Notes under the pieces: generated by a model
Seen by the model: only the letters and a program-made list of their open reading frames with translations
What the model was told of the DNA's origin: nothing
Database searches by the model: none
Part shown: positions 10,099 to 47,111 of the stretch, piece after piece
Layout of the letters: each line of letters begins with the position of its first letter
Numbering within the stretch: the first letter of the stretch is position 1
Program-made: the position numbers and the translations under genes
From: Nitrosopumilus sp.
Lineage (GTDB): Archaea > Thermoproteota > Nitrososphaeria > Nitrososphaerales > Nitrosopumilaceae
Reading direction: 5' to 3'
DNA: 64,000 nucleotides
Assembly: GCA_965206745.1 (NCBI GenBank)
Contig: OZ242220.1
Location: 900,434 to 964,433, forward strand

Positions 10099-12273
10099 GT
10101 GGCTAGAAATGCAATGTTGGCACTCTTTACAGTGCTACTCATAGGAATGATGGTTGCCCCTGCGTATGCCGAGTTGTCGCCACGGGAACAACTCAAAATC
10201 GGCATCCCGATAAACCAAATTCTATGCAATGAGGAAAAGACCCTCATACAGTCACCTACAGGCAAGCCTGCCTGCGTCTTTGATGCCACTTTGGAAAGAC
10301 TTGTTCTACGGGGATGGATCATTGTGGAATTGGTTACACCGATTGTTGATTTTCAAGGGATAATAGATGCCACAGAACCAGCACCTGAACCAACACCAGC
10401 ACCTGAACCAACACCAGCACCTGAACCAACACCAGCACCTGAACCAACACCAGCACCTGAACCAACACCAGCACCTGAACCAACACCAGCACCTGAACCA
10501 ACACCAGCACCTGAACCAACACCAGCACCTGAACCAACACCAGCACCTGAACCAACACCAGCACCTGAACCAACACCAGCACCTGAACCAACACCGGCAC
10601 CTGAACCAACACCGGCACCTGAACCAACACCGGCACCTGAACCAACACCGGCACCTGAACCAGCACCTGAACCAGCACCTGAACCAACACCCGCACCCGA
10701 GCCTGAAATAATTTATTCTGATGACGGATATACTGCAAATCTATACCATGAAAACGGAATTCTCAAATCAGAAAAACAGTATGAGAACGGACAACTAGAA
10801 ACAGAATTATTATACCATGAAAACGGAGATCTCAAATCAGAAAAACACTATGAGGACGGACAGCTAGAATCAGAAATACAGTATGATGAAGACATGAATC
10901 GCAAATCACAAAAATATTATGAGGACGGACAACTAGATGAAGGAACACACTTTGAATACCATGAAAATGGAAATAAACAATCAGAAGTGCAACTTGGTAA
11001 AAATGGAAATTTGAAATTAGAATTAAAATATTTTAAAAATGGAAATCAGCAATTAGTATACAAATATGATGAAAATGGTGTGCTGATAGAAATGTCGCAA
11101 TTTTACAAAAACGGAAATTCTAAATTAACAGAATATTATAACGACGGACAGCTAGAAGTAGAAATACGATACAATGAAAATGGATATATGAACTCTGAAT
11201 TTGATTATTATGAGGACGGACAGCTAGAAAATGAATCATACTATGAATACTATGAAAACGGAAATTTCAAATTAGGAAAAGACTATGAAGATGGGCAACT
11301 TGCAGGTGAAACACATTACTATGAAAACACCAATCTCAAATCAGATAAACAGTATCAAGATGGGCAACCTGATTCAGATATAGAATACTATGAAAACGGA
11401 AATTTCAAATCAGAAAAATACTATGAGAATGGACAACTAGTAGGAGAACGTCACCGTTACAAAAACGGAAATATGGAATTTGAATCCAAATATTATGAGA
11501 ACGGACAAACAAAAGTTGAATCTCTATACCGTGAAAACGGAAATGGTATATCAGACAAATATTATGATGAGAACGGACAGATAATAGACGAAACATATTA
11601 TGAGTATTATGAAAACGGGAATAAACAATCAAAACTTCAATATTATGGTAACGGAGAACTAAAAGCCGAATATCAGCATTATGAAAACGGAAATAAACGA
11701 TCAGAATTACACCACTATGAAAATAACATGATAAAACAAGAATTGCAATTTTATGAAAATAAAAACATGCAATCAAAAAAATCTTACTATGAGAACGGAC
11801 AACTGAAATCAGAATATCAATACCATGAAAACGGAAATCTCAAATTACACAAAATTTACTCAGAGCACGGAAAACCTGGCTATACGGAATACAATAAAAA
11901 CGGAGATCTCAAATTAAAAAAACATTATTCTTATGTGGACGGACAATACATAGTATACAGAGAAGTATCCTATGAATACCACGAAAACGGAGATCTCAAA
12001 TCAAAAAAATATTATCTCACTGGAAAACTAATATCTGAGTCATACTATGAATACCATGAAAACAGAAATCTCAAATCCCAAAAACACTATGAGAACGGCC
12101 AACTAAAATCAGAATATCAATACCATGAAAACGGAAATCCCAAATCAGAAAAATATTATTGGAACGGACAACTATCCGAAGAAGTATACTATGAATACCA
12201 CGAAAATGGAGATACCAAATCAGTAAAACGCTATAAGAACGGACAAGAAGTGCCATACATTACATTCGGTTAA
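10099..12273 (+). CDS. Secreted MORN_2/YwqK-like repeat protein with Cys-motif N-domain and Pro-rich stalk
   Basis: Signal peptide (…MVAPAYA|EL), SPREQ..C..PACV..RGW module, (PAPEPT)n linker, then ~520 aa of Y(H/Y)ENGxxKSExxYxxGQL repeats. Confidence 0.85.
10378..10707 (+). repeat. 18-bp coding minisatellite (PAPEPT)
   Basis: Unit ccagcacctgaaccaaca x12, then ccg-variant units, then a degenerate PAPE tail. Confidence 0.97.
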
Positions 12274-12603
12274 TTAGAATAAGAATGACAATGCCACAAA
12301 AACAGAGATTTTGAATCTGTAAAATAATATGATTAGAACGAGAACTTGAAAACAGACTAGAATTTGCATGCATGAATTTGACAAAAATAGGACCGGGGTT
12401 CCAAAATCACTCTGGCCTGCTCACCCGCTGTACCTGCCTGGTTAATTAAAACATGCTTCATAATTCGGCAAATTCATCATCTATCAGTTATAGCTTAGAA
12501 TGTTGATTAATCATCAGCAAACTTCCTTCTAATTGCCACGGTATATTATTATTTCATATGGACGACCATAACCTTTTTGATGTGACCTGGCACTAATTAT
12601 GGT

Positions 12604-12855
12604 ATGGTCAATTTTGAAAAGGTCTATCAAAGAGTCGCCTCCCAAATAATTCAGAGGTGTCACGGTGCAATCAAAATTACCAAGCATGGGAGAATTATTG
12701 AGGTCTATGATACAAAGCGGCATATCTGGAGCGATGGCCTGGCAGGGCTAATAATCAAGGAGGAGTGCCGAAATGCTGATCTGAAGGAATGGGAGTTTGC
12801 AAGTGTCAGGACATGTGTAATCAAAGAGTTACTTGGAAAAAACAATGATCAATAG
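12604..12855 (+). CDS. Hypothetical protein (thaumarchaeal type)
   Basis: 83-aa ATG ORF. Confidence 0.75.
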   Translation: MVNFEKVYQRVASQIIQRCHGAIKITKHGRIIEVYDTKRHIWSDGLAGLIIKEECRNADLKEWEFASVRTCVIKELLGKNNDQ

Positions 12856-13124
12856 CACACTTTTCTGATCAAGTACGGCTCTTTTAGCATGATTGTATCG
12901 TCTCTGGTTGATGACAGATCCACTGTTTTGAGGTTGTGGTTTGTAACTATTGTTAGTGCCTCGCATCTAGAACACAGTACTGTCCTTCCATTTGAACGGC
13001 CCTCCCTGATGATGTCTCTTTCCAGCCTGTCTTCTTTTTGGCATGTGGGGCACAGTCTTGGTTCACTTTCAATTGTGATTATCTCCTTGATGAAGATCGT
13101 CCTTCCCATACTGCCCATCTTCAA
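12849..13124 (-). CDS. Small zinc-ribbon protein
   Basis: CPTC...CSRC motifs. Confidence 0.7.
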   Translation of the reverse strand: MKMGSMGRTIFIKEIITIESEPRLCPTCQKEDRLERDIIREGRSNGRTVLCSRCEALTIVTNHNLKTVDLSSTRDDTIMLKEPYLIRKVCY

Positions 13125-13848
13125 TATGTCCCTAAAGAGTCATAGTGTTAATTGGTATCAGCAATCCATTTTGAATGTCAAACCGCTTTAATCATCCAAA
13201 ATTAGATCGAATGGTATTCAACATATTTCCAATCTAACCAATTAACATCATATTGCTGTGTATCTTGAAAATATATTTTTGCAAATCCGGCTCTGCAGGT
13301 CACCTGCTGCATTAGAATCCCTTCACACTGACTAGTTTTTTCACCTGATACCGTCTATCCCTATCAAGAATCGTAACCTGTCTCTGCAAGTATCTTTTAA
13401 AATTCAGCATTCTGTCTTTGTAGCATTGCCTCGTGTTATTTGATGGATGAAAATATGGTGATTATCCATAATTTACAAGATTTACCTGTATTTCTTGAAA
13501 TAATTCATGCTAAATCTTAAATAGTTATTTATCTTATACAATATGATGTCGTTAGTTCAAAAATCTGGCGATTAGATTGCGCTGCCCCGCAGAACAAAAA
13601 AGGCAATCAGGCGTTTAGACGCTTGACCACGAGAGAAACTCTCATAGTTCTGCAGTTAGGGGCTTGCGCCTTTTTATCTTCTTTAGATGAAATCTTGATT
13701 TGTAATAAAGGGGAGCATTCTACACAATCGATTTTCTGTGATTTTTGAGCAGAATTTATGCGTAATCTAGTTGGTTTCTTGCCTTTCAAAGATTCCTACA
13801 TGCTGATCAACCATTAATTCTGGAGGCAAGGACGCTTTGGAAAACCAC

Positions 13849-14955
13849 TCACGTGATGATCTCATCTAGCCTGTCTTCATCTATGGCCTGCCTAATCTCC
13901 ATGGCAATTCTCCGTCCCACCCCGAATGTCTGTCCGTACTGATACTTTGTGTACGGACTAGTAGTCGCAACAATTGGGTTTCCTGGGACCCTCAGTGAGA
14001 CGTCATACACTATCAACTCTAGGTCTTTTGTAATGACGCTCTGCAGTGAGAATGGCCCTATGATGCCTGGTGCATACTCTCTCTTTGCAGCTGCAACAAA
14101 CTTGTCTCCCATCTTCAGTACCTTCTCAAGCAGTGACTCCCTGATGCTTGCAGGCGTGTGACCCACCTCGATATTCTGCAAGTCGATATCCATCTCCATC
14201 TGCTCTCTTGCCGGAAGCGCATTATAATCATGGATGTTAGTCTGCAGCCTTCTCTCAATTCCGATAAAATCAACCTGGTTTGAGATTGGCGTGTGAAAGA
14301 AATTAAAGTTCATGTATGTGCCAATTGCCAACTCTTCGATGCTTGCCTTTTGGAGATCTTTTCTTGCAATTATCCCCTGCTTGATCTTCTCCTCGGATTT
14401 TTTCACATAGTCCTTGTACGATGAGACCGTAAAGAATGCCCTCTCAAGCGGTCTCTTTTTTTCCTGAACTTTGACGATGCATGGCTTGTTGATCCGCTTG
14501 GGGTCTTGGAATAACTTTGGATACTTTATTCTGGCCTTCTCCAGCAGATAGTACTGCCCCTTTTTGGCGGTCCTCTCCTCTGCTTGGAACAGCCTTCTGT
14601 TTCCAAAGATTGGCACCTTAAAGGAGTCCTCAATAGTCTTGTATCCGAGGTATACTGTAAGTGACCTGTGCGGAACTATGATTGTGCTTGTGTCCCGCAG
14701 CTCCTTTTGATATCTGGCAGATGCCATCTCCTTGAATTTGTTCAGAACCGTAATCTCATCTGCAATGCGCCCAAACCTCTGGTATGGTCCCTCGCGTCCC
14801 CTTTGGCAAAAGACTCTCGTCTGAAAACCCTCATCCTTTGCACCGTCCATTATCTCTAGTGCAGAGTGACTTCCAAGAACGCCAATCTTTACATCGGTGT
14901 AATTGCTGACTATCTTCTTAATCTCGGAATCTTTAATCACGGTATGCCTATACAT
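13849..14955 (-). CDS. purP: Formate--phosphoribosylaminoimidazolecarboxamide ligase
   Basis: GSHSALE, FGNR.L...EER, IGIERRLQTN, GIIGPFSLQ; ATP-grasp PurP signature. Confidence 0.93.
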   Translation of the reverse strand: MYRHTVIKDSEIKKIVSNYTDVKIGVLGSHSALEIMDGAKDEGFQTRVFCQRGREGPYQRFGRIADEITVLNKFKEMASARYQKELRDTSTIIVPHRSLTVYLGYKTIEDSFKVPIFGNRRLFQAEERTAKKGQYYLLEKARIKYPKLFQDPKRINKPCIVKVQEKKRPLERAFFTVSSYKDYVKKSEEKIKQGIIARKDLQKASIEELAIGTYMNFNFFHTPISNQVDFIGIERRLQTNIHDYNALPAREQMEMDIDLQNIEVGHTPASIRESLLEKVLKMGDKFVAAAKREYAPGIIGPFSLQSVITKDLELIVYDVSLRVPGNPIVATTSPYTKYQYGQTFGVGRRIAMEIRQAIDEDRLDEIIT

Positions 14956-15035
14956 TGGGATCTAATATAGCTAATTTTTGATTGTCAAGATCGGCTGATC
15001 AATAGACTTTTTTTAACTGGAATCTGACACGAGTC

Positions 15036-15182
15036 ATGTTTTATCACTTTGAGATTCAGATGGTTGGGGTAATCATTCTCCCTGTAATGCTTGCAGTAGG
15101 GCTACTCGTGTGGTTTAGGCGGAGAAGGGCAGATAAGGAACTCTCTGATGCCCAAAATGATGGCGATTCCCTGAACATCTAG
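15036..15182 (+). CDS. Small single-TM protein (absent from the ORF track)
   Basis: MFYHFEIQMVGVIILPVMLAVGLLVWFRRRRADKELSDAQNDGDSLNI*: TM followed by a basic stop-transfer patch. Confidence 0.55.
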   Translation: MFYHFEIQMVGVIILPVMLAVGLLVWFRRRRADKELSDAQNDGDSLNI

Positions 15183-15239
15183 TGTTCCCTTTGAATCTCC
15201 ATCTAATACATAAAATACTGTGTTCCCCAATGATAATCG

Positions 15240-15797
15240 TTGAAGCTAGTAATTGGAATTACCGGCAGTACCGGTGCAATATATGGCATCAGGCTGCTTG
15301 AGACACTAAAGAGATTAGACGTTGAGACGCACCTGATAGTCTCCAAATGGGGGGAAAAGTGCATCTCTATGGAGACTGGCCTTACCTTTGATTATGTAAA
15401 GTCGCTTGCAACAAACATCTCTGATGAAAAAAATATGGCATCAAGTGTCTCTAGTGGCACCCATAGAATCGACGGAATGATTGTGGCACCTTGCAGCATG
15501 AAGACACTGTCTGCAATCGCAAACGGCTATGATGACACACTGGTAGCCCGGGCAGCCGGAGTCACAATCAAGGAATCCCGAAAACTGATTCTAATGGTCA
15601 GGGAGACTCCCCTGTCTGCAATACATCTGGAGAACATGCTAAAACTTGCCAGACTGGGCATTGTAATTTTACCGCCCGTTACAGAATTTTATACCAAGCC
15701 TGAATCCATCGACGATATAATAAATCACGGCGTTGGGAAATGTCTGGACCAGTTTGGTCTAGAGCACGACTTATACCCTCGATGGGGTACCCTCTAA
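15240..15797 (+). CDS. ubiX: Flavin prenyltransferase UbiX
   Basis: IGITGSTGAIYG, SSGT, VAPCSMKTL, RETPL motifs. Confidence 0.95.
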   Translation: MKLVIGITGSTGAIYGIRLLETLKRLDVETHLIVSKWGEKCISMETGLTFDYVKSLATNISDEKNMASSVSSGTHRIDGMIVAPCSMKTLSAIANGYDDTLVARAAGVTIKESRKLILMVRETPLSAIHLENMLKLARLGIVILPPVTEFYTKPESIDDIINHGVGKCLDQFGLEHDLYPRWGTL

Positions 15798-15804
15798 ATT
15801 ACCA

Positions 15805-16233
15805 TTGCCTAAATTCTCCCTAGAAAAAACTGTCAACTGTGATAGGAACCGTACCTTTGAGATCTTTTCAAATTTTGAGGACTATCAAAGAGTGGTCCCC
15901 CAGCACTATCCTTCTGTCCGCATTCGCTCAATGCGCGGAGACGTGTCTGTAGTTGAGGAGCACCTGGTTTTAGGCAGTATGGAACTATTAATCATGGCAA
16001 AGCATGTTTTGCAGAAACCAATTCTCCATGAGATTTTTGTAATTGGCGGTGATGCAAAGGGAAGCCAAATCAAGCAGGAGTTTGTCGAGCTTGAGGAGGG
16101 AACAAAAATTCTAGTGGATGTTGACTTGAAATTCAGCGGCAGAATGAGAATGTCTGCAATGCTTGGAGGAAATAATTTCAAGCAGGACTATAGTAAAATT
16201 TTGGATGATTTTGCGGTACTTGCTGCAACCTAG
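15805..16233 (+). CDS. SRPBCC/polyketide cyclase-like protein
   Basis: START-fold pattern (FEIFSNFEDYQRVVP...). Confidence 0.75.
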   Translation: MPKFSLEKTVNCDRNRTFEIFSNFEDYQRVVPQHYPSVRIRSMRGDVSVVEEHLVLGSMELLIMAKHVLQKPILHEIFVIGGDAKGSQIKQEFVELEEGTKILVDVDLKFSGRMRMSAMLGGNNFKQDYSKILDDFAVLAAT

Positions 16234-16472
16234 TCTGATTTTGATTCCTTTTCCTTGAAATCCTTGAGTTCCTTGTCTGCCTCTATCTTTCCCTTTTCAA
16301 ACTCACCTTTGGCCTTGCCAAACGTCTTTGCCAGCTCTGGAATCTTTTTTGCGCCAAAAATCAGTACGCCGATAACTACCACCAATACGATGATCTCAGT
16401 ACTTCCCAACATTACAAAATATTCGTCTATTTCAGATTTAAGTGTTAGACTTTTTTCGGGCTCGACGCTCAA
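16230..16472 (-). CDS. tatA: Twin-arginine translocase TatA/E subunit
   Basis: LIFGAKKIPELAKTFGKAKGEF motif; true start probably near 16412. Confidence 0.92.
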   Translation of the reverse strand: MSVEPEKSLTLKSEIDEYFVMLGSTEIIVLVVVIGVLIFGAKKIPELAKTFGKAKGEFEKGKIEADKELKDFKEKESKSD

Positions 16473-17229
16473 TTATGAGCATGCCTGCGGCGTACAGTCC
16501 GATCATTGGACCTGCGACAAACATCATTGTCACACCGGTCCCGTCAGGGGTTATGACTGCCCCAAAGATCACTATGATCACTATGGCATATCTGATATTC
16601 TTTCTCCAAAATTCTGCATCCACCATGCCTGATGCAGACACTGCATACATTACAAGAGGAAGCTGAAATGAGAAGCCAAACGCAAGCAGGAATTGCAACA
16701 CAAATGTCACAAACTCCATCACGTTGAGAAATGTGATCAGTCCTGCGCCTTCGCCGTACTTGTAGAGAAACTCCAGCATGTACGGGATTACAAAGTTGTA
16801 GGAAAATACACAGCCTGCAACAAACAATCCTAGTGCAGGCAACGAGATGCTTCTGCTTACGTGGACTTCGTTCTCTTTTAATGCCGGCTTGATGAATCCT
16901 ACAAACTCTTTGATTATTACCGGCATTGCTACGACGACTCCGACTAGTGCTGCAACATACATCTGGGCAAAAAATGCCTGTCCCGGAGCTGTCTGAATCA
17001 GTTGAACATCCTCTGGAACTAGATTGATTCTCATCTGATTTGTAATCTGCGCTGCCATGTTGTGTGTCGGTTCTGGTATTGGGTAATACAGAGTCACCTG
17101 ACTGATTTGAAATGGCTCTGCATGAAACATTAGTAAAAATGCTGTAATCCCTACAATCACAATGACGATTCTAACTAGGCGTCTTCTTAATTCTGCTAGA
17201 TGTTCATTGATGCCATCCAATTCGGACAT
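16438..17229 (-). CDS. tatC: Twin-arginine translocase TatC
   Basis: EHLAELRRRL, FQLP, AVITPD motifs; six TM segments. Confidence 0.95.
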   Translation of the reverse strand: MSELDGINEHLAELRRRLVRIVIVIVGITAFLLMFHAEPFQISQVTLYYPIPEPTHNMAAQITNQMRINLVPEDVQLIQTAPGQAFFAQMYVAALVGVVVAMPVIIKEFVGFIKPALKENEVHVSRSISLPALGLFVAGCVFSYNFVIPYMLEFLYKYGEGAGLITFLNVMEFVTFVLQFLLAFGFSFQLPLVMYAVSASGMVDAEFWRKNIRYAIVIIVIFGAVITPDGTGVTMMFVAGPMIGLYAAGMLIIERRARKKSNT

Positions 17230-17258
17230 TCGTTCTCTTGAATTTTAAACTATAATAA

Positions 17259-24379: not shown

Positions 24380-25717
24380 TTGACTCCTCGAAATTCATTG
24401 AACAAGGTTATTCTGTCAATGCTGGCATTGACTTTGGTTATTACATTGGGTCTGGGATCATCTTATGCTCAAGATGATTATGTATACCATGATGAAAATG
24501 GGAATAAACAACCAAAAGTTTTCTATTATAATAATGGACAGCAGCAATCGGAATTCCACTATGATGAGGGCGGATTGCTGGAACAAGAAACACGATTTTC
24601 TGAAGATGGAAGTATACGCTCACATACCTTTTATGACCATAACGGTTATCCGAATGAACAAATATCCTATGAATATCATGAAAACGGAAATCTCAAATCA
24701 GAAAAACACCATGAAAATGATCATCTGGAAGAAGAAATACTCTACCATGAAAACGGTCAACGTAAATCAGAAAAATACTATGAAAGCGGACAACTAGATC
24801 AAGAAATATACTATGAATACTATGAAAACGATAAAATCAAATCAGAAAAATATTATAAAAACGGAGAACTAAAATCAGAATCAAGTTATCATGAAAACGG
24901 GCATCTGGAGCTATATTTGCAATATGATGAAAACAAAAATGTGCAATCAGAAGGCACCTATGATGAAAACGGACAACTAGAAGATGAGACACGCTTTGAA
25001 TATTACAAAAATGGAAGTCAGAAATCACTAAAAGAATATGACGATGGGCAATTAGAGTTGGAAACACAATTTTACAAAAATGGACATTTCAAATCTACAA
25101 AAAAATACACTAACGGACAACTAGAAACAGAATGGCAGCGACATGAAAACGGAGATTTAGAATCAAGATCAGACTATCATGAAAATGGAAATAAACAATC
25201 ATTCACAATATTCAAAAACGGACAACCGAAATCTGAGATTCGTTACGATGAAAATGGGAATTACAACTTGTACCGATTGCATCGTGCTGACGGTTCATTA
25301 AAATCTGAAAGCCATTATCATGAAAATGGAAAATTAAAATTAGAAATAATCTATTATGAGAACGAACTACCACAATCTGAATTTAGTTATTTCTACGATG
25401 GACTAATAAAATCAAAAGTCACTTATTTCGAAAACGGACAACTAAATACACTGTTGCAATATAATGATATGGGGTTTATACTGGGGTTAAAACCACTAGC
25501 GTTTAAACAACTGGAAATTAGTTATTATGAGAATGGACCACTACGATCCGTAACCCATTGGCATGAATATAACATGTTAAAATCAAGAACGTACTATGAT
25601 GAAACTGGCGTATTGAGCGCAGTAATATTATATAATCAAATGGGACACGTACAATCCAAATTCTATAATGATGAAAATGAGGAGTCAAAAAAGAATATGA
25701 CTGGAACGGACAGCTAA
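24380..25717 (+). CDS. Secreted MORN_2/YwqK-like repeat protein
   Basis: Signal peptide (…GLGSSYA|QDD), then YHENGxxKSExxY repeats; probable 2-nt insertion at 25679-25680. Confidence 0.85.
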   Translation: MTPRNSLNKVILSMLALTLVITLGLGSSYAQDDYVYHDENGNKQPKVFYYNNGQQQSEFHYDEGGLLEQETRFSEDGSIRSHTFYDHNGYPNEQISYEYHENGNLKSEKHHENDHLEEEILYHENGQRKSEKYYESGQLDQEIYYEYYENDKIKSEKYYKNGELKSESSYHENGHLELYLQYDENKNVQSEGTYDENGQLEDETRFEYYKNGSQKSLKEYDDGQLELETQFYKNGHFKSTKKYTNGQLETEWQRHENGDLESRSDYHENGNKQSFTIFKNGQPKSEIRYDENGNYNLYRLHRADGSLKSESHYHENGKLKLEIIYYENELPQSEFSYFYDGLIKSKVTYFENGQLNTLLQYNDMGFILGLKPLAFKQLEISYYENGPLRSVTHWHEYNMLKSRTYYDETGVLSAVILYNQMGHVQSKFYNDENEESKKNMTGTDS

Positions 25718-29272: not shown

Positions 29273-29623
29273 TTAACGTCGACGTTTAGCTGCCTTTCTC
29301 TTTGGAGCGGCTCTGCGTTTTGGTGCTGCCTTTCTCTTTGGAGATGCTTTTTTAGATGCAGTTCTTCTCTTTGGAGCGGCTCTGCGTTTTGGTGCTGCCT
29401 TTCTCTTTGGAGCTGCTTTTCGTTTGACTGCAGTTCTTCGTTTTGGTGCTGCTTTTCGTTTGGAACCAGATTTACCTGCGTTCTTTCTACGAGTTGCTGC
29501 TGCCTTTCTTTTACGAGCTGCTGCGGCCTTTAATGCCTCTGCTGCCTTTTTAGCTGCATTCCTCTTTCGAGTTCTTGCGGCCTTTTTAGCTGCTTCGGCT
29601 CTTTTGGCTTGAGATATTGCCAT
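29273..29623 (-). CDS. Lys/Arg/Ala-rich histone H1-like basic protein
   Basis: Repeated KRKAAPKRR units; almost no acidic residues. Confidence 0.8.
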   Translation of the reverse strand: MAISQAKRAEAAKKAARTRKRNAAKKAAEALKAAAARKRKAAATRRKNAGKSGSKRKAAPKRRTAVKRKAAPKRKAAPKRRAAPKRRTASKKASPKRKAAPKRRAAPKRKAAKRRR

Positions 29624-34421: not shown

Positions 34422-35138
34422 TCACTTTAGTTGAATTATTGGCTCCTCTTTTCCAATTGGCATGATGATGTCTGCGGGAATTTCGATTTTCCTATCCCCT
34501 AATGAAAGAATTACTCTTTTTGGAAGGATGAAGGTTCCTTCCTCTACGGTTTCAATTTTTCCAATTTGACCTGCGTTACTTCCTCGCGTAACTAGTCCCT
34601 GACAACCTGCTTCTAATTTAATTACTTCAATAATCTTTTGTTCTGGAACCTGAATCAAGCATGTATCTCCAATACTCACTTTGGTATCTGAGATTACTGA
34701 ACGGCCGTCATGGAATCCAACTTGCATCTTTCCCTTGTTTAGCGTGGTTTTTGTAACGACTCTGACAAGTTTTTTAGATTTTTCTGATTCGTTAATTTTA
34801 ATCGGCTCTAGTAGTTTATCTTCAGTTGGAACCAGACGGTAAATTTCTGGAACATTTTCTAGCTCCACGACATCCATTAACCCAATTGCATGGTGGAGTG
34901 ATTTTCTTACAACCCCGTCAATCTTTACCTTTCCAGAATAAATTGTAGCCTTTGCTTCTCTTAGACTGGTTACAATACTTAGCATGTCTCTAAGAAATAC
35001 GGCAGTCGGTACTGAATCGCTCTTTTTATGTGGACCAGGCTTTACAGTAATTACGAACCTCTTGTTTTTTCTGGCAATACCCCAGAATTGTGGAGCCATT
35101 TGACGTTTGAGTTTCTTACTGCCTGCTATGCTTACCAT
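34422..35138 (-). CDS. rps4e: 30S ribosomal protein S4e
   Basis: KLKRQMAPQFW...PGPH, KIDGVVRK. Confidence 0.95.
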   Translation of the reverse strand: MVSIAGSKKLKRQMAPQFWGIARKNKRFVITVKPGPHKKSDSVPTAVFLRDMLSIVTSLREAKATIYSGKVKIDGVVRKSLHHAIGLMDVVELENVPEIYRLVPTEDKLLEPIKINESEKSKKLVRVVTKTTLNKGKMQVGFHDGRSVISDTKVSIGDTCLIQVPEQKIIEVIKLEAGCQGLVTRGSNAGQIGKIETVEEGTFILPKRVILSLGDRKIEIPADIIMPIGKEEPIIQLK

Positions 35139-35761
35139 TAATTCTCATCTTCCTCTTTTTTGGCTTTTTCTGCTCCTTTTGTTTCTTTAGGGGGCGCCTC
35201 TACAACCTCTAGCTTTGTTTCCTTGGGTTTCTCTACAACCTCTGGCTTTGTTTCCTTGGGTTTCTCTACAACCTCTGGCTTTGTTTCCTTGGGTTTCTCT
35301 ACAACCTCTGGCTTTGTTTCCTTGGGTTTCTCTACAACCTCTGGCTTTGTTTCTTTTGCTATTTTTGGCTTTGTCTCTGCATCCACTTTGGGTGTTTTTG
35401 GTTGTTTTCTAGGATCTTTGCCCTCTAGTTTTGCAATTCTCCACTTGTCTTCTGTATTGAGTGAAGTAACTACAAGATTGGATGTGTGGATGTAAACGTC
35501 AAATTTATCGCCCTTTGTTTTTTCTTTCTTTACCCCTTCAATTGCAACACTGCTTTTGGGTATGGATATTTTAGATACCTTGCCATCCACACCTTTGAAC
35601 TCTCCTCTGAGTATTTTGATACTGTCACCTTCAATCACTCTGACACTTTTTTTGCCGTATTTTTTATGAAGATCCTTGGAAAGTGTACTGCCAAGCTGCT
35701 TGCTTTTGGTTTTGTATGTTGCCTGATAAATCATCTGATTGCGCATTTTTGTTGGCTTCAT
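35138..35761 (-). CDS. rpl24: 50S ribosomal protein L24 (uL24) with repeat-expanded C-terminal tail
   Basis: [21 protein letters not shown] motif, IHTSNL. Confidence 0.95.
35198..35353 (-). repeat. 33-bp coding tandem repeat ([11 protein letters not shown]), about 4.7 units
   Basis: Units start at 35198, 35231, 35264, 35297 and 35330 on the + strand. Confidence 0.95.
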
Positions 35762-37762: not shown

Positions 37763-37764
37763 TT

Positions 37765-38624: not shown

Positions 38625-38668
38625 CTCTCTTCTCCTCTGTTAATGTACTTCGAGTTTTATAGTCCATA

Positions 38669-39744: not shown

Positions 39745-40739
39745 CAGATGACTACCTCCAAAATGTTTGGCTTGATAACTTTGTCTGGCGCATTTCTGAT
39801 TTGACTCCTTAGTTTGATTAATCTCTTGTACGTTCCTGGAACTGAACCTTTTAGAATGATAAAGTCTCCTTTGACTAGTCCAAAGTGTTTGTAACCCCCA
39901 TCAGGGTTGATCTTAATCTTGTCTGATTCGGTATTGCCCATAATCATAATTCGCTTATCATATTCCACTCTTTGATGGAACCCAGTCTGTCCTGCTCTTG
40001 GAACTGTATACATGACGCTTTGTGGTGAGATTGGACCCAGTGAACCCACTTCTCTAACCGTTTTTCTTGATTTGTGCTGTTTCTTTTTGACACCCCATCT
40101 TCTCAACACTCCTTGCCATCCGTGACCTTTTGTAATTGCTGCAACATCCACAGTTGCACCCGTTTCAAAAATTTGCTCGATTTTAATCTCCTTTCCTAGT
40201 GACTCTTTGACATGTGCAAACTGTTTTTTAATATCCCCTCCACTGACCATTGCCTCAAAAATATACGGCTTCTTCATCTCTAATCCTGCCGCTCTTGGAG
40301 AAACTGCAACAATCGCATAAATCTCTTTAATTCTCTTTAATCTTGACTCTGCATTTTCAATTGAACCTGCAATATTTTTTATGTTGATCTCCTTTGCGAT
40401 ATTTTTTGGAATATCTTCTGCATACACGTCAAACTCTGCATGCTTTCCATCGTGATCTTTTGAATATCCCCTAATTCCTAGGATCAAGACTGGAGGCGTG
40501 ACTAACACTGTGCCCAAACTAACTAGCTGCTTTCCTGCATTTGGCACTTTGTCACGATCATCGATGCTGACTATCTGCACGCATCCTGCTTTGAATCCAC
40601 AGTGTGCTAAAATTTTTGGTTCGTCTGTTGCTGATAATTTTGGCCAAGCTCTGATTCTTGCCTCCATGCTTTTTGCACGTACCCTGCGTGAGTATGCAAG
40701 ACTTCCTCTGCGTGGTTGATGTCGTTTTCGAGCTCCCAT
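39744..40739 (-). CDS. rpl3: 50S ribosomal protein L3 (uL3)
   Basis: PRRGSL, TKGHGWQG..RWG, GQTGFHQR, KGSVPG. Confidence 0.97.
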   Translation of the reverse strand: MGARKRHQPRRGSLAYSRRVRAKSMEARIRAWPKLSATDEPKILAHCGFKAGCVQIVSIDDRDKVPNAGKQLVSLGTVLVTPPVLILGIRGYSKDHDGKHAEFDVYAEDIPKNIAKEINIKNIAGSIENAESRLKRIKEIYAIVAVSPRAAGLEMKKPYIFEAMVSGGDIKKQFAHVKESLGKEIKIEQIFETGATVDVAAITKGHGWQGVLRRWGVKKKQHKSRKTVREVGSLGPISPQSVMYTVPRAGQTGFHQRVEYDKRIMIMGNTESDKIKINPDGGYKHFGLVKGDFIILKGSVPGTYKRLIKLRSQIRNAPDKVIKPNILEVVI

Positions 40740-40830
40740 GACTAAAACGCATCATCGATTTCCCTCTATTAAACCATGTGTGATGTCGTTAACCATCAAA
40801 AAAATCCAGGTTAACCAACTATGCCTATTT

Positions 40831-40941
40831 TCATGGCAAAATTAATTCCGAGACAGAATTCCAAATTGTAAATCCCCCAATAATGATCCCGGCAGCTCCC
40901 AAACCGATTGCCAATAACAGGAAATTTTTTCTTTCAGGCAT
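40831..40941 (-). CDS. Small single-TM protein (absent from the ORF track)
   Basis: MPERKNFLLLAIGLGAAGIIIGGFTIWNSVSELILP*; starts 7 bp after the SPOUT gene stop. Confidence 0.5.
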   Translation of the reverse strand: MPERKNFLLLAIGLGAAGIIIGGFTIWNSVSELILP

Positions 40942-40948
40942 ATCCAGA

Positions 40949-41755
40949 TTAATTGTTGGCATTAATTATTGCTAGTGTTCCTAGCAGTGCTTCTTCTAGG
41001 CGTACGGTTTCTGTTGCTTGGTTTGGGAAAAAGTTTATCGACTTTGCATTTTGAACCTTGTTCATTCTTCCACCGATGATCTCATGAACTCCCCTTTCAG
41101 GTGACCCGAAAACCACAAGGGTGGACTCGCCTGATTTTTTATATTTTGACAATTGCTCGCTTGATACTGGCTTTCCCTTCCTTGATGTTATGATGATGTT
41201 TCCCTTCCATTCTGATAATATTGAAAACAAGTTTGCTCTTTCTTTAACAGAGTATCCCCAGTATGTTGGAACCTCGCTCTTGTCTATGTCCTTGATTGAT
41301 AGTTTTGGATAGCCTTCTTTGAATTTGACTGTGACCCTTTTTCCAATTGAAACGCTGCCATAATACTGGATTAGCTGATTAATCCCGACATCTACAAATT
41401 TCTTGCCCTTTGCACCTATTACGATGCCTTCCCTGATGTCTCCTGTGATGATTTTCTTAGAATTTACTGGCGTATTGTGACTTGGAATTTTTAATGGTTG
41501 CAAAACCCCTGCAAACTTTAAATCATTCATTTTGGAAAATAACCTTCTTCTCAAAAACTGCGGCGTCTCCAAATATTTTAGAATCATTATCATTAGTCCA
41601 AGATCCGGCTTTTTACTCCCTTCTTGGTAGACATAGATCGTATCAATTTTAAAAATCGCGCATGCTCTGGCCAGAACTGAGATCTTTCTTGTCTTGTCAA
41701 TTTTTAGCGATTCATCTGATAAAGCAGACTCGGGAATTGCAACAGATAATTTCAA
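40949..41755 (-). CDS. SPOUT-class RNA methyltransferase (DUF171/C9orf114-like)
   Basis: LARACAIFKID, YLETPQFLR, YWGY, FPNQATETVRLEEA. Confidence 0.9.
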   Translation of the reverse strand: MKLSVAIPESALSDESLKIDKTRKISVLARACAIFKIDTIYVYQEGSKKPDLGLMIMILKYLETPQFLRRRLFSKMNDLKFAGVLQPLKIPSHNTPVNSKKIITGDIREGIVIGAKGKKFVDVGINQLIQYYGSVSIGKRVTVKFKEGYPKLSIKDIDKSEVPTYWGYSVKERANLFSILSEWKGNIIITSRKGKPVSSEQLSKYKKSGESTLVVFGSPERGVHEIIGGRMNKVQNAKSINFFPNQATETVRLEEALLGTLAIINANN

Positions 41756-41786
41756 TATAATTTAATCTCACAGGTGCCTTAAATAA

Positions 41787-42524
41787 TTATTTTTGGTCGT
41801 GTGGGTATTTTGCCTTGGCATCGTTTGCATATTTTGTAATTTGTTCATCTGATATCAGCTCATACAATCCTGTTTCCTTTTTAATACATGCCATTCTGAT
41901 GTGATTTGTTCCTTCCTTATCTTCGCTTGAAAGATAAATCCCTGCAGTGGCCAACACTGCTGTGTCATCAAGTGAAAGATCTCCCTTGTATGCCTTTTCC
42001 AAAAAGTCTGTCACTTGATCAGAGCCGGAACCGATTGCTATTGCGTCATAGGAGATGTATGTGCCACTAGGATCTGTTAGATACAACTGAGGTGTGTTAT
42101 TTACAACTCCTCCGAGAATCAGTGCCACACCAAATGGTCTTACGCCGGCATACTGGGTATATTGCTGGCATTGATCGGCCAAATGTTTGGCAATAGTTTC
42201 AACTTCGACTGGTTCGTCATAAACCATCTTGTTACTTTGAGAAAAGAATCTTGCATTGTCTACCTGACTTCTTGCATCTGGAATGTATCCTGCGGCTGCC
42301 ACTCCAACATGATCATCTATTTGAAAGATCTTTTGAGCAATATCTGAAATCTGTAATTTTCTTGGTTTTTCTTCAACTGCGATAATGATGCCATCTTTGC
42401 ATTTTATGCCTACTGCAATTGTCCCCCTTCTAACAGTTTCAATGGCGTATTCTACTTGGTATAGTCTGCCGTCTGGGGAGAACACTGTGATTGCTCTATC
42501 GTAACCTTGTTGTGCAGGAAGCAT
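41787..42524 (-). CDS. psmA: Proteasome alpha subunit
   Basis: YDRAITVFSPDGRLYQVEYA, RPFGVALI, DPSG. Confidence 0.97.
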   Translation of the reverse strand: MLPAQQGYDRAITVFSPDGRLYQVEYAIETVRRGTIAVGIKCKDGIIIAVEEKPRKLQISDIAQKIFQIDDHVGVAAAGYIPDARSQVDNARFFSQSNKMVYDEPVEVETIAKHLADQCQQYTQYAGVRPFGVALILGGVVNNTPQLYLTDPSGTYISYDAIAIGSGSDQVTDFLEKAYKGDLSLDDTAVLATAGIYLSSEDKEGTNHIRMACIKKETGLYELISDEQITKYANDAKAKYPHDQK

Positions 42525-42658
42525 TTGATTGCAATGCTTTGATTATACAATTTAAACCATGCCAATAATTACGAGGAATTACCACGTTGATCGGAGCCTA
42601 TCCTGCAAAGAATATTGCAAATCAAACGTTAATTTGAAACTTGAGTTGTAATTGATTT

Positions 42659-43105
42659 ATGAAGTTTGAAATTGCATTTTCTGGGCATGAAAATATCCGC
42701 TCCAACCACAAAAAGACACTGGAGATCACCAGGGAATCTCATTTGACACCCAGAGGGGATTGCATCGTCGGTGTCAATGCAAAATCAGGCTGTGCTGACT
42801 TGCCTGATGAGCTAAAAAACAAACTTAGAAACTCTGACTCAAAAGTGACTATCTCAATTAAAGTTGGCAACGATATCTTTGTGATGGAAGGAAGAGGACA
42901 TCCTAGTCTAATTCTGAGCCATGCTGAGGATATTGTTATCAGAAAAAGCGACTTTGTTTGTCCACGAACGCTTGCAGTAAAGTGCGACAAGGCATCTGAT
43001 CTGCTACCTCGGAGCATGGTAGCCCTGTTACAAAATCCCGAAACGGTAGGCATCCTCACAATTACTGTTAAATCACCAAAAGATCCGACTGTACTCCCAA
43101 ATTAA
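42659..43105 (+). CDS. DUF371 family protein
   Basis: GHENIRSNHKKTLEIT...LTPRGDCI. Confidence 0.9.
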   Translation: MKFEIAFSGHENIRSNHKKTLEITRESHLTPRGDCIVGVNAKSGCADLPDELKNKLRNSDSKVTISIKVGNDIFVMEGRGHPSLILSHAEDIVIRKSDFVCPRTLAVKCDKASDLLPRSMVALLQNPETVGILTITVKSPKDPTVLPN

Positions 43106-43130
43106 CTAAAAAAATCTGATTTTTCATACA

Positions 43131-43485
43131 TTTGGATCTACTGTGATCCTGATAATAAAAGAGAAGATTGATGTTCCAATCACCGATAGCATGACTGATT
43201 GGTATGTCGTGTTATAACAAACCATGTTTGCAATGATGCGACATCCCTTGAGATGGCTCCGATGAAATATTAGATGAGGCCGAGGAAATTCAGACAGGTT
43301 ACAAGGATATGAAGAGAATCCTGCCGCGTACGACCAGTACGAATAGTTCTATTCGACTGTTTTTGCTTTATCTCTCCATCATGGTGTACGATACATGGGT
43401 CTCTGCAAAGATATATCCTGGTATCCTGATGACTCTACTCATGACTATATCACGTATGATGGATGTTGCAATCGGAGGTATGTAG
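43131..43485 (+). mobile_element. Decayed ISH3-like (IS4-superfamily DDE) transposase C-terminal fragment
   Basis: Reading across stops and shifts gives ...WYVV/TNH...KY*MR/IQTGYKDMKRILPRTTSTNSSIRLFLLYLSIMVYDTWV, matching the ISH3 Y.R.W.IET..RTTS...RLF...YN.W signature. Confidence 0.6.
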
Positions 43486-43736
43486 ACAGCAAAGAAAAAG
43501 TCACCTGATAATGGTCAGTCGAGGAAAGGGATGCAATCGGAATTTCCGCTGACACTGTCACAATTTTATAGGCTATCCTCCAATTTTGTTCATGGGTCGG
43601 AAAACAAACTTCTTTCTTCTTGTTCCTTTGGCCACTTTTGCTGCCATCATTATTGGATTTGGCCTTTACAATACGATCTGTAAAAACTCAAACATTCCAA
43701 TTAATTGCTAGGTAGGGAAAAACTATTTGGGATTTG

Positions 43737-45437
43737 TCATGTTCTCTCTACTGCACTGTAGGTGTCCTTGTCTGTATCCCACGTAATTCGAATTTCAGAA
43801 TCCTGCTCATATATTGATAACAGTATTTCTAAATCTTCTTTTAGTGCATTGTCTATAATTTCCAATATTCGGAATTTCTCTTTGATCGAGGTTTTCTCTA
43901 CAGCCGAATAATTTTCACGGACGTTTGTCATTTGTGTAGTAAAGCTCTCCCTGGATATCTCGCCTCTGTTGATTTTGTCTGAAAGAATTTTTTCTTCGCC
44001 ATGTTGCTTTCCTTTCATTTCAATGAATATCAAAGCATATTTCTTTTCAATATCCTCTCTTTGAAGGTCATAGTTATCATGAATTTTTTTGATTTTTAGA
44101 TCAAATCCGGATATTTTTTTTGCAATTCTGTCCTGATTCAATCGTATTTCTGTTAATTCATCTGGAATGACCTGTATTTCTTTGCGTACTGGACTTCCCA
44201 TCTCATACTTTATCCATATTTCTGCGGTGTACTCTGTTACACAAACATAGTCCTTTGCCTGATGTCTATAAATCAAAATATAATTATCCCTACACTCAGT
44301 CTCAGAATCTGATTCACTTAATTCCTCCCATGATGATGTATCGTTTGGATTAGATGCCAGATAACCTGGATTTGTCCTGTAATCCAAGTAATACTGTCGT
44401 AATTGCTCTCCAGATATACCTAAATTGAATTTTCCATCTTCATCAAATAATACCTGTTGATTATAGTATGCATCTCCCTTTAAAATATTATACAGTGCAT
44501 TAACTGACACCATTTCAACTCGGGTAATTTTTGCTGCATCGGCAAAAGCATCCCTTGCTTCTATTGGTCCTCCGCCATTTTGAAGTACTTTTTTCATTGC
44601 ACTATGACCTGCTTTAACTTTAGATGCTGTAAATTTTAGAGGATTATCATAGATGCTATTTGAAAATTGTGCAGGATCACCTTCGAGTGTTCGTTCCAAC
44701 AGTTTTTCAAATGAATGATATTCCCATTTTGCTTCCCATTTTTTCAAATCATTATCCAAATATGCTAAAATTGACTCCTTTTTTTCTTCGAGTTCTCTTT
44801 GCTTTTCTGTTGCTTTAAATTCTTTATTTTGTAATTTATCAATCCATCTCTTACTTTTTTCAATTTTATTTAAAATATCTTGAGCCACCGGATCATTTGC
44901 CAAATCTCCACCCAGTACCGTTCGTTGATTGGTTATCTGCTCATCTATTTGCTCATCTACCTGTTTTTTGACCTGTTTGTCTACTCCAAATTCTTTCTTT
45001 TGCAGTTTATCAACATCCCTCTTACTTTTTTCAATTTTATTTAAAATATCTTGAGCCACCGGATCATTTGCCAAATCTCCACCCAGTACCGTTCGTTGAT
45101 TGTCTACCTGTTTCTCTATCCCTCCAAATTTTTTCTTTTCTAGTCCATCAATCCACTTCTCAGTTTCATCAATCCACTTCTCAGTTTCACCTCTCTCATC
45201 TAAAATATCTCCACCCAGCACAGTTCGTTGATTGTCTATTGTTCCAAATTCTTTCTTTTGCAGTTTATCAACATCTCTCTTACTTTTTTCAATTTTATTT
45301 AAAATATCTTGAGCCACCGGATCATTTGCCAAATCTCCACCCAGTACCGTTCGTTGATTGTCTATTTGAGCATGGGCAATATTGATGGAGATCATCAAAG
45401 CAATAACAGTTAAAATTACAAAACCTGCGACTTTCAT
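43737..45437 (-). CDS. Secreted coiled-coil protein with duplicated N-terminal module
   Basis: Signal peptide; NQRTVLGGDLANDPVAQDILNKIEKSKR x3; internal C...CV Cys module. Confidence 0.85.
   Translation of the reverse strand: MKVAGFVILTVIALMISINIAHAQIDNQRTVLGGDLANDPVAQDILNKIEKSKRDVDKLQKKEFGTIDNQRTVLGGDILDERGETEKWIDETEKWIDGLEKKKFGGIEKQVDNQRTVLGGDLANDPVAQDILNKIEKSKRDVDKLQKKEFGVDKQVKKQVDEQIDEQITNQRTVLGGDLANDPVAQDILNKIEKSKRWIDKLQNKEFKATEKQRELEEKKESILAYLDNDLKKWEAKWEYHSFEKLLERTLEGDPAQFSNSIYDNPLKFTASKVKAGHSAMKKVLQNGGGPIEARDAFADAAKITRVEMVSVNALYNILKGDAYYNQQVLFDEDGKFNLGISGEQLRQYYLDYRTNPGYLASNPNDTSSWEELSESDSETECRDNYILIYRHQAKDYVCVTEYTAEIWIKYEMGSPVRKEIQVIPDELTEIRLNQDRIAKKISGFDLKIKKIHDNYDLQREDIEKKYALIFIEMKGKQHGEEKILSDKINRGEISRESFTTQMTNVRENYSAVEKTSIKEKFRILEIIDNALKEDLEILLSIYEQDSEIRITWDTDKDTYSAVERT
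44851..45359 (-). repeat. Three identical 80-bp intragenic direct repeats
   Basis: Copies at 44851-44930, 45022-45101 and 45280-45359. Confidence 0.93.
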
Positions 45438-45651
45438 ATTTCAAAAATTGTTTTTTTGTATTTAGCGTGTGCTGATGATTCATTAGTAAAAATAGGGATT
45501 TTATGACTAAATGGATAACTGATCGGTATCTTTTGAAATGTGTTGTAGGTGATCGATCAACTTTGATTAAAAGAATTCGGTTTGTGGTGTAATGTTTTTG
45601 TTAATTCTGCTTTAGCAAGATTCTATTAAACTATGAATTAGATCCCTTGTC

Positions 45652-45993
45652 ATGGTGAAATCCAAAATAGAATTACCAATTTCCCAAATGCCCACAGATG
45701 CTGAATTAAAGAAACTAAAGGATTACTTTAAAGACATGCCTGTGACTGAAATCCTTAGTGGACTAAAATTTGCCAAGAATAGGTGGTCTGCAAAAGATGC
45801 CGGCACTCTAAAAGTAGGAAGGAAAAGTATTATCCAAAAGGAAGTCCACTCAGTCACTACAGAACAAGCCCAATGGAGGCTGAAAAATTGGAAGATGATG
45901 ATTGCAAATTACCGTAGGCGTGGATACAGTTATCCTACTATTTCTCGAATAAAGAAAATTTTGGTTCAAAAAAGCAAAAAAAGATCAAAGTAA
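45652..45993 (+). CDS. Basic hypothetical protein
   Basis: 113-aa ATG ORF, Lys-rich. Confidence 0.75.
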   Translation: MVKSKIELPISQMPTDAELKKLKDYFKDMPVTEILSGLKFAKNRWSAKDAGTLKVGRKSIIQKEVHSVTTEQAQWRLKNWKMMIANYRRRGYSYPTISRIKKILVQKSKKRSK

Positions 45994-46028
45994 TTCTCTA
46001 AAAATTTATTCTAAAAAACAGGAATAGG

Positions 46029-47111
46029 TTATCGAGCCCAACCACGTTCTATTAGTTTTTGAACGCTGGATGCTTTAACACAAGCTGGCTCACCGGATAT
46101 TTTGAAAATTAACTCCCTTGCTGCTTTACAATGAATATTTTCAGGTTCAACCCCTTCTTGGATTTGTTTTAATGGTGATAATAGTGTCTTGTCCATTTTT
46201 TCTCCATCGACCATTACTGCATCATCTCCATCGACCATTACTGCATCATCTCCATCGACCATTACTGCATCATCTCCATCGACCATTACTGCATCATCTC
46301 CATCGACCATTACTGCATCATCTCCATCGACCATTACTGCATCATCTCCATCGACCATTACTGCATCCATACTATCTGATGTGTCATTTCCAAAAACTTC
46401 ATTCATGTGTTTTGATTCAACTCCACTGACAATTTCAAATTCTATTATTGCCTCATTTACCATCATTGCCACTTGTTCTGGGGTCTCTTTTTGATCATAT
46501 GCTTTCAAAATTTGCACATATGCATCACTGATTTTTTCTGAATCCTCAACATCTGCTTTTATCTCTTCGAAGATCTGCTGTGATCTCCAAATGAATGCTG
46601 AACCATCTTGAAATTCTGCCATCTCTACAATCAAACCTCCCTCAACTGCTTCTTTGTATTCCACTTTGGATGTTTCAAGCAAATCGTTGATTAATTGTGC
46701 TTTAAATGCTGAATCATTACTTAATTCATTTCCAACCACAATCTCTCTTGCTTGTTCAATAATTTCTTTGGCCTTGTCAATTGCTAACTGGGCCTCTTCT
46801 CTACCGACCTCTGTATTTGCCATGTTTTTTAATTCCAATAATGTTTTCTTTAGTTCTTCATTAAATTCTGGGTTGTCATCTAAATGCATACTCATTGTTT
46901 CATACAATTCTGATATTGGATGAGTTGAATGTATCAGTGCCAGTTCTGAATTGCCTTCATCCAGATTCTTCTCTAATGCCTGAAAATGCCCTAGTGTCTC
47001 CTCAAGAGCCCCTGCAAATTCTAATTTTGCATCCATTTGACTATCTGCAAAAGACAATGGTGCAGATGCCAGAATAATTGCAGATAAAATTCCTAATACT
47101 ATCGTTTTCAT
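46029..47111 (-). CDS. Secreted acidic helical protein with (DDAVMVDG)7 linker and C-terminal Cys/RGW module
   Basis: Signal peptide; HF...HSTHP..E, EY.EA..E..DG motifs; ends SPLKQ..C..PACV..RGWAR. Confidence 0.85.
   Translation of the reverse strand: MKTIVLGILSAIILASAPLSFADSQMDAKLEFAGALEETLGHFQALEKNLDEGNSELALIHSTHPISELYETMSMHLDDNPEFNEELKKTLLELKNMANTEVGREEAQLAIDKAKEIIEQAREIVVGNELSNDSAFKAQLINDLLETSKVEYKEAVEGGLIVEMAEFQDGSAFIWRSQQIFEEIKADVEDSEKISDAYVQILKAYDQKETPEQVAMMVNEAIIEFEIVSGVESKHMNEVFGNDTSDSMDAVMVDGDDAVMVDGDDAVMVDGDDAVMVDGDDAVMVDGDDAVMVDGDDAVMVDGEKMDKTLLSPLKQIQEGVEPENIHCKAARELIFKISGEPACVKASSVQKLIERGWAR
46201..46367 (-). repeat. 24-bp coding minisatellite x7
   Basis: Unit tctccatcgaccattactgcatca at 46201+24n. 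Confidence 0.97.

Follow-up and report, generated by a model that had tools for sequence, protein, structure and literature searches.

Three secreted proteins encoded in a 64,000-nt stretch of Nitrosopumilus sp. contig OZ242220.1 (assembly GCA_965206745.1, positions 900,434-964,433; hereafter the window) share a module of about 49 residues, and it is close to certain that this module is the NCBIfam family NF058652.1 'WING-49'. The module is statistically excluded from proteins with a membrane anchor and swaps with the PEFG-CTERM signal on homologous passengers, so that WING-49 behaves as an alternative to PEFG-CTERM. From the sequence evidence we tentatively favour the reading that WING-49 may be a portable, non-covalent docking or retention module for envelope proteins that have no anchor of their own.

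WING-49 as an apparent alternative to the PEFG-CTERM anchor

The products of genes 1, 2 and 3 of the window (Table 1) all reach the curated WING-49 cut-off of 22 bits, which places the module in a sequence family that had already been catalogued. The gene 1 protein scored 52.2 bits (E=4.7e-14, aa 28-74, model positions 1-48 of 49), the gene 2 protein 71.3 bits (E=5.2e-20, aa 313-359) and the gene 3 protein a borderline 22.4 bits (E=9.7e-5, model positions 13-46). Chance similarity between the copies was ruled out by these E-values. On our own profile, built from 109 sequences, the gene 1 module scored 54.2 bits and the gene 3 core only 7.1 bits. The NCBIfam entry consists of a name with no function, Pfam holds no family for the module, and literature searches for WING-49, for its signature peptides and for the Nitrosopumilus exoproteome found nothing in the paper library searched. 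WING-49 is a catalogued sequence family that is functionally blank, to which the window adds three members. The initial annotation had described one module in three signal-peptide proteins, internal and more divergent in the third, and knew of no assigned function; this description stands, with two clear copies and one borderline copy in a family that had in fact been curated.

The copy in gene 3 is truncated. Its SPxKQ helix and its RGW end are both missing, EIWIKYEMG occupies the C-terminal end position, and the spacing of its two cysteines is one residue longer than in genes 1 and 2. When the gene 3 orthologue profile was compared with the module profile by hhalign, a probability of 70% (P=3.9e-5) was obtained over 33 columns that include both cysteines. 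AlphaFold2 placed strands at residues 386-391 and 396-401 and a helix at 402-410 of this core, with a predicted local distance difference test score (pLDDT) of 64-70. Truncated tandem copies, spanning model positions 14-48, are recognised by the NCBIfam model in two other proteins (P0125 and P0131). Because of the NCBIfam score, the hhalign comparison, the AlphaFold2 model and the truncated copies found elsewhere, we take gene 3 to encode a diverged WING-49 core. Orthologues of gene 3 occur across Nitrosopumilus.

The range of the family was established by three routes. When 1.84 billion cluster representatives (clusters at 50% identity) were searched with a profile of 12 modules, 4,724 clusters passed E<=1e-3, of which 1,693 passed E<=1e-10, and the NCBIfam WING-49 model matched 149 of the 149 newly listed top hits. 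The earlier statement that similar modules are common in Nitrosopumilus proteins is supported by these numbers. In GTDB species genomes, a peptide-pattern scan whose loci were confirmed by tblastn gave 223 confirmed loci; among the matches listed, 78 of 80 belonged to Nitrosopumilaceae or unclassified Thaumarchaeota, and the genera represented were Nitrosopumilus, Nitrosarchaeum, Nitrosotenuis and Nitrosotalea. Finally, the taxon-neutral, codon-degenerate DNA pattern P-A-C-V-K-x5-K-L-x3-G-W found at least 120 stretches. All 119 of the new loci from this pattern were confirmed by our own profile, and the titles among the matches listed were almost all Nitrosopumilaceae. A word-index homology search returned no candidates when the 50-aa module was the sole query.

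Four records carried other labels (Phycisphaerales, 'bacterium', Gammaproteobacteria and Nitrososphaeraceae); their GC content, 34-42%, is Nitrosopumilaceae-like, and on the 'Gammaproteobacteria' contig there is a gene evidently orthologous to the gene 2 family. WING-49 proteins typical of Nitrosopumilaceae are encoded at the loci L130 (BMAH01000059.1), L039/L119 (JAJDDC010000087.1) and L057/L086 (CBDFMG010000005.1), whose contigs bear the labels Gammaproteobacteria, Phycisphaerales and 'bacterium'. Such off-label records are likely to be bin contamination or mislabelled metagenome-assembled genomes. Essentially all known copies of WING-49 are so far confined to Nitrosopumilaceae.

Export and architecture were analysed in a census for which 199 GTDB loci (1.3 Mb) were translated and 204 complete, non-identical open reading frames (ORFs) with a module were kept. 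A signal-peptide-like start was present in 198 of the 204 (97%) and a single copy of the module in 202. The partner domains include beta-propellers, cupredoxin/plastocyanin, serpin, Kazal, LamG, MG2, dienelactone hydrolase, PQQ-type dehydrogenase and Hcp, together with single matches to ADH_N, LacI and CdvA. The signal-peptide census and these partner domains indicate that the hits are not mostly cytoplasmic proteins, an outcome that the initial annotation had named as a possible refutation. They also uphold its description of a portable, extracytoplasmic module on unrelated passengers. A cytoplasmic family was rejected; the protein with the ADH_N partner (P0214) appears to be a chimera of metagenome assembly, with a GC-rich N-terminus of bacterial type fused to an AT-rich C-terminus of Nitrosopumilus type.

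The position of the module within the protein is not fixed. It is flanked on both sides by regions of 70 aa or more in 94 of the 204 ORFs (46%), and lies at the extreme C-terminus in 52 (25%) and directly after the signal peptide in 46 (23%); five further ORFs are mini-proteins and seven were unclassed. Terminal position, which had been expected as a general rule, was not upheld. The metagenomic representatives gave the same architecture picture, skewed to C-terminal copies because the query profile had been built from C-terminal copies. Some proteins, of 97-150 aa, have no passenger at all (P0124, P0130, P0134, P0136, P0142, P0145 and L084) and are made up solely of a signal peptide and a C-terminal WING-49 with an acidic linker between them. 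Their linkers are rich in Glu, Asp and Thr and are often repetitive.

As a sorting signal of the PEP-CTERM/PGF-CTERM type, PEFG-CTERM is considered to anchor proteins in the membrane (PMC6593220). A C-terminal transmembrane (TM) or PEFG anchor was found in only 1 of 160 WING-49 proteins, versus 46 of 198 other signal-peptide ORFs from the same loci, a depletion of approximately 40-fold (odds ratio 0.02, Fisher p=3e-12). No PEFG motif was detected in any of the 204 WING-49 ORFs and a hydrophobic C-terminal tail was present in one; among the 149 metagenomic representatives, none showed a hydrophobic segment after aa 40. The three window proteins conform to this picture, and the earlier statement that they have no obvious C-terminal TM anchor was supported: the only hydrophobic segment of each is at the signal peptide, the NCBIfam search gave no TIGR04296 match for genes 1, 2 or 3, and a PEFG-type C-terminus was not found in any frame of the window. 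The module was also considered as a variant of PEFG-CTERM, and this was rejected, since it has neither the motif nor a TM segment.

The relation between both endings is best seen on the passenger of gene 2. Among the matches listed, 120 homologues of this passenger were found, of which 87 have WING-49 as their ending and 33 have PEFG-CTERM; no homologue has both endings or lacks both. The C-terminus of the PEFG group consists of VVPEFG, a TM helix and a basic tail. In the examples tested against NCBIfam, TIGR04296 was matched in the PEFG group (e.g. P0006 and P0027) and WING-49 in the other group. The passenger occurs as one domain, two domains or one plus an extra domain, with either ending (P0002, P0153, P0247, L037 and L130). 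Alternation of WING-49 and PEFG-CTERM was also observed on a second, unrelated passenger, a beta-domain ending in '...IEIIGT'. Two homologues of the gene 2 protein named 'PEFG-CTERM sorting domain-containing protein' (P0016 in NCBI, P0031 in UniRef) end in WING-49 and have no TIGR04296; these names were probably carried over from PEFG-ending paralogues.

WING-49 and PEFG-CTERM are alike in several respects: the organisms that use them are the same, the signal-peptide proteins that bear them are of the same kinds, they share the C-terminal position on homologous passengers, and they are mutually exclusive. PEFG-CTERM is presumably processed by a sortase-like enzyme. Exclusivity at the same position of homologous passengers would also be expected if WING-49 were a tag that a dedicated system of sorting, processing or modification recognises (a protease, a transpeptidase, glycosylation or a Dsb-type system), in the manner of short C-terminal sorting domains, and the invariant P-x-x-Q-x3-G start of the module and the thiol-disulfide genes that adjoin gene 2, syntenic in a relative, could be taken in the same sense. 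We nevertheless consider such a tag quite improbable. PEFG-CTERM is a linear motif followed by a TM helix and a basic tail, whereas WING-49 is a folded, soluble domain of 49 aa without a TM segment, which also occurs at the N-terminus and, in nearly half of the proteins, internally. Besides, no conserved neighbouring enzyme gene was seen, and general synteny explains the Dsb-like neighbours.

Predicted fold, conserved surface and possible roles

The AlphaFold2 model of the gene 2 module, obtained with the 109-sequence alignment, reached a pLDDT of 92.1 and comprises a helix (residues 3-8), two strands (22-27 and 32-36) and a second helix (37-45), followed by G-W. WING-49 is thus predicted with confidence to be an autonomous helix, beta-hairpin, helix fold. 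A sequence profile search of the PDB with the module gave nothing comparable (best match E=5.4). The best Foldseek matches, all of them non-significant, were Fstl1, follistatin, BM-40 and HER2, in which 22-27 residues of the cysteine hairpin superimpose at 0.6-1.7 A; membership of the EGF or follistatin families was rejected on account of this lack of significance.

Conservation and charge were analysed on 233 paralogous modules. P2, C17, C34 and W48 are present in 100% of them, Q5, G9 and L43 in 99%, L23 and G47 in 97%, K26 and A33 in 94%, V35 in 92%, P32 in 91%, K36 and R46 in 85% and K42 in 83%. The N-terminal motif S-P-x-[KQ]-Q-x3-G reads SPREQLKIG in gene 1 and SPLKQIQEG in gene 2, and the C-terminal K-L-x-x-R-G-W end reads RLVLRGW and KLIERGW, respectively; neither motif is present in gene 3. 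C17 and C34 are 17 positions apart and bracket the first beta-strand, the second of them lying within beta-strand 2. In each of the window proteins the module pair represents the only cysteines of the whole chain (C43/C59 in gene 1, C328/C344 in gene 2 and C382/C399 in gene 3), and the two could form one disulfide. The modules have a mean net charge of +1.7, with 76% of them positive, and the mean for the host proteins is -1.85 per 50 aa. Since these charged positions are conserved across paralogues with unrelated passengers, a shared interaction surface is suggested.

One explanation that dispenses with such a surface is an inert structural module, that is, a compact, protease-resistant, disulfide-locked connector or cap that keeps domains of exported proteins apart or stabilises them, with no particular binding. 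The frequent internal position keeps a connector role alive, the more so as no special linkers accompany the copies placed between two large regions. The predicted fold is confident, self-contained and unlike any known binding domain, and the sole weak likeness found is to disulfide hairpins of the EGF/follistatin type, which are often spacers. Against this, the modules at the extreme C-terminus or right after the signal peptide have nothing to connect, and proteins without a passenger exist (among them P0124, P0134 and P0142). In addition, charged and polar positions are 83-99% conserved across paralogues with unrelated passengers, and a spacer role predicts neither exclusion from anchored proteins nor swapping with PEFG-CTERM. 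On balance, we regard the inert module as somewhat unlikely.

The docking or retention reading is favoured because it brings together three observations: anchored proteins are almost devoid of the module, PEFG-CTERM can take its place, and its conserved face, apparently basic, sits in a negatively lined envelope. N. maritimus has an S-layer whose lining is negatively charged and which surrounds a pseudoperiplasm (PMC11153153). According to this reading, WING-49, which is attached to Sec-exported proteins without a membrane anchor either at one of their termini or between domains, would have no catalytic role. After export the module would fold, its two cysteines may pair, and its conserved, mostly basic surface (K4, Q5, K26, K36, K42, R46 and G47-W48 of the module) might bind a common anionic partner in the envelope; candidates are the acidic S-layer (on its underside), the surface of the membrane and other envelope proteins. 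Such binding would keep otherwise free passengers in the pseudoperiplasm, as a non-covalent alternative to anchoring by PEFG-CTERM.

Several points weigh against docking. The module of gene 1 has neither K26 nor K36, and its net charge is only +1. The internal position of 46% of the copies fits a plain connector domain as well. Exclusion from anchored proteins may mean no more than that WING-49 is a label of soluble proteins, rather than their anchor, and the signal-peptide and TM calls on which the census and the anchor comparison rely were made with our own hydropathy heuristics, not with a trained predictor. Furthermore, the IMG/VR viral contigs yielded no WING-49 copy, and hence no hint that viruses have taken it over to attach to the host surface.

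A conserved surface might also serve contacts among the modules themselves. If WING-49 domains bound each other, in homotypic or heterotypic fashion, they could link secreted proteins into oligomers or into a pseudoperiplasmic network. Some proteins do carry two or three copies, or one at each end (P0121, P0122, P0125 and P0131), those without a passenger could serve as bridges, and the surface is conserved among paralogues. Self-association is nonetheless distinctly unlikely, given that nearly all genomic ORFs contain a single copy and that the net positive charge of most modules disfavours binding of like with like. Very improbable, in turn, is the binding of a small ligand (a glycan, a metal or a lipid head group) that would serve the chemistry of the passenger and not its location. 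The conserved basic and aromatic residues K26, K36, K42, R46 and W48 might be read in this way, as might the presence of passengers that resemble metalloproteins, namely cupredoxins and the His/Glu-rich one of gene 2. However, the passengers are too diverse for a common substrate, the module has two cysteines only and no conserved cluster of His, Asp or Glu for a metal, and it bears no likeness to known carbohydrate-binding modules.

Docking could also be extended to a wider proposal, which we consider fairly unlikely: Nitrosopumilaceae might have a system of their own for organising the envelope, with WING-49 as its docking half, in which dozens of anchor-less pseudoperiplasmic proteins per cell would be held on one common receptor. 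The receptor could be the inner face of the S-layer protein or its C-terminal Ig domains, a SlaB-like stalk or a scaffold anchored by PEFG. The cargo would include cupredoxins and beta-propeller enzymes, which are candidates for those steps of ammonia oxidation in archaea that are still unresolved. An S-layer protein is not encoded within the 64-kb window.

The window genes, their repeat linkers and their neighbours

The features of the three genes are collected in Table 1.

Table 1. WING-49 genes of the window, with their modules and tandem arrays (window positions).
Feature	Position	Strand	Description
Gene 1	10099..12273	+	Secreted 724-aa protein: signal peptide, WING-49, (PAPEPT)n linker, MORN_2 passenger
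Gene 1 WING-49 module	10174..10320	+	aa 26-74, 2 residues past the predicted cleavage site
Gene 1 tandem array	10377..10697	+	In frame; encodes the (PAPEPT)n linker, aa ~93-203
Gene 2	46029..47111	-	Secreted 360-aa protein: signal peptide, helical His/Glu-rich passenger, (DDAVMVDG)x7, C-terminal WING-49
Gene 2 WING-49 module	46035..46181	-	aa 311-359, stops 1 residue before the stop codon
Gene 2 tandem array	46201..46367	-	In frame; 24-bp unit encoding (DDAVMVDG)x7
Gene 3	43737..45437	-	Secreted 566-aa, largely helical protein: N-terminal ~40-aa repeats, internal WING-49-like core
Gene 3 WING-49-like core	44196..44303	-	Divergent and truncated, aa ~379-414: Cys, beta-hairpin, Cys, helix

Tandem repeat arrays lie between module and passenger in genes 1 and 2, as had been reported initially. 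Analysis with Tandem Repeats Finder gave a period of 18 bp with 17.5 copies and 95% matches for the array of gene 1, and 7.0 copies with 100% matches for that of gene 2. In a syntenic relative (L081), whose protein is 88% identical to that of gene 2, the corresponding linker consists of 10.0 perfect copies of EDAAMVDG, versus the seven of DDAVMVDG in the window; each array of the gene 2 type has been homogenised within its own lineage. Among gene 2 orthologues, identity is 68% in the module, 68% in the passenger and 19% in the linker. Since these linkers span from 1 to 94 aa at such low identity, no particular stalk length is conserved, and the proposal that a variable stalk tunes how far the passenger projects from the cell was rejected.

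A general association of the module with repeat or acidic linkers did not hold either. The content of D, E, P, T and S in the 25 residues on each side of the module equals that of the rest of the protein, and low-complexity or repeat flanks were found in only 4 of the 204 ORFs (2%), a rare occurrence even though it exceeds the background of 0.3% of 30-residue windows. The repeat linkers look like unconstrained tethers, prone to slippage and fast-evolving, and not like a property of the family. Under the docking reading, those of the window would be ordinary tethers of this kind that grew as in-frame minisatellites, and would not form a tuned part of the system.

In the gene 1 protein, signal peptide cleavage is predicted at AYA|E and the hydrophobic segment covers aa 1-27. 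The passenger consists of MORN_2 repeats (PF07661), with a Pfam score of 72.4 bits versus a gathering threshold of 29.6 and eight matched stretches. Exact database look-ups of the product, with either of its two possible starts, gave no record, and neither the N-terminus of gene 1 nor gene 3 had relatives at the level of 8-mers among GTDB species representatives. A second secreted MORN_2 protein, of 445 aa (24380-25717, +; Pfam 59.1 bits), is paralogous to the gene 1 passenger; it has a signal peptide and contains no WING-49, no PAPEPT linker and no cysteine at all. Therefore, forms of the MORN_2 passenger with and without the module are present in one genome.

The passenger of gene 2 (46392-47045, -) has the invariant residues H42, H61, H64, E68, H76, E146, E151, E154, E163 and E166 (alignment A6) and carries an EFQDGSAFxWRSQQ motif. 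Precomputed matches to PF09375 exist on some of its homologues, and a sequence profile search of the PDB with the passenger found no relative. It may be a metal-binding helical protein. Scanning for promoters and terminators around gene 2 gave results at chance level. The N-terminal half of gene 3 (~44770-45370) contains about four copies of a unit of ~40 aa (NQRTVLGGDLANDPVAQDILNKIEKSKR..DKLQKKEFG), with a weak match to DUF7071 under the cut-off. The orthologues of gene 3 are mostly ~420-430 aa long and align to ~70% of the window protein, so the N-terminal repeat region is apparently expanded here.

Two genes directly adjoin gene 2 (47944-49056, -, and 49058-49789, -), one for a thioredoxin-like/Redoxin protein that has a TM segment at its N-terminus, the other for a membrane protein of the DsbD_TM (CcdA-like) kind. 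This synteny is kept in the relative L081 (99-800 and 7323-9168), where a DsbA-family gene is also located nearby. Such neighbours fit extracytoplasmic thiol-disulfide chemistry, and general synteny accounts for their presence. Between genes 3 and 2 lies a basic ORF of 113 aa (45652-45993, +) with no Pfam match, which is kept in the same relative as a called gene of 113 aa at the same position (11191-11532).

Repeats were also observed in two other genes of the window. The gene for ribosomal protein L24 (Ribosomal_L26 family; 35138-35761, -) has a C-terminal extension with an in-frame array (35198-35353; 33-bp unit, 4.7 copies, 99% matches) that encodes an 11-residue unit unrelated to WING-49. 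An ORF of 116 aa (29273-29623, -) is highly basic, rich in Ala, Lys and Arg, and has no Pfam match; its KRKAAPKRR-type repeats (29289-29531) show periodicities of 18, 36 and 69 bp, and the product could be a nucleic-acid-binding protein.

Significance and comparison with known systems

In ammonia-oxidising archaea (AOA) the key chemistry runs between the membrane and the S-layer, and we know of no account of how soluble proteins are kept and arranged in that space. WING-49, with thousands of clusters, is among the commonest domains on exported AOA proteins; it is restricted to one lineage and is undescribed in the paper library searched. Its exclusion from anchored proteins and its swapping with PEFG-CTERM turn a family known by name only into a testable hypothesis, namely that AOA have two alternative routes of retention. 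Should this be true, the module would offer a handle for the envelope receptor, for candidate nitrification enzymes and for surface display in AOA. Should it be false and the module be a plain connector, the result would amount to an ordinary domain annotation.

Apart from PEFG-CTERM, the closest parallels to the proposed docking are found among bacterial modules. Dockerin, SLH and LysM are small non-catalytic modules that vary in position, accompany a wide range of unrelated secreted proteins and are sometimes preceded by Pro/Thr-rich or acidic linkers; they provide a non-covalent hold on the envelope. Their likeness to WING-49 is one of working logic only: WING-49 matches neither the family profiles nor the folds of SLH, LysM, dockerin, CWB or GW. 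With the hairpin modules of the EGF-like and follistatin-N type, it has a weak local likeness that is limited to the cysteine hairpin. The proposal of a common receptor, for its part, resembles the assembly of cohesin and dockerin, with which WING-49 would have in common the principle of one receptor for many cargoes but not the fold, which is unrelated.

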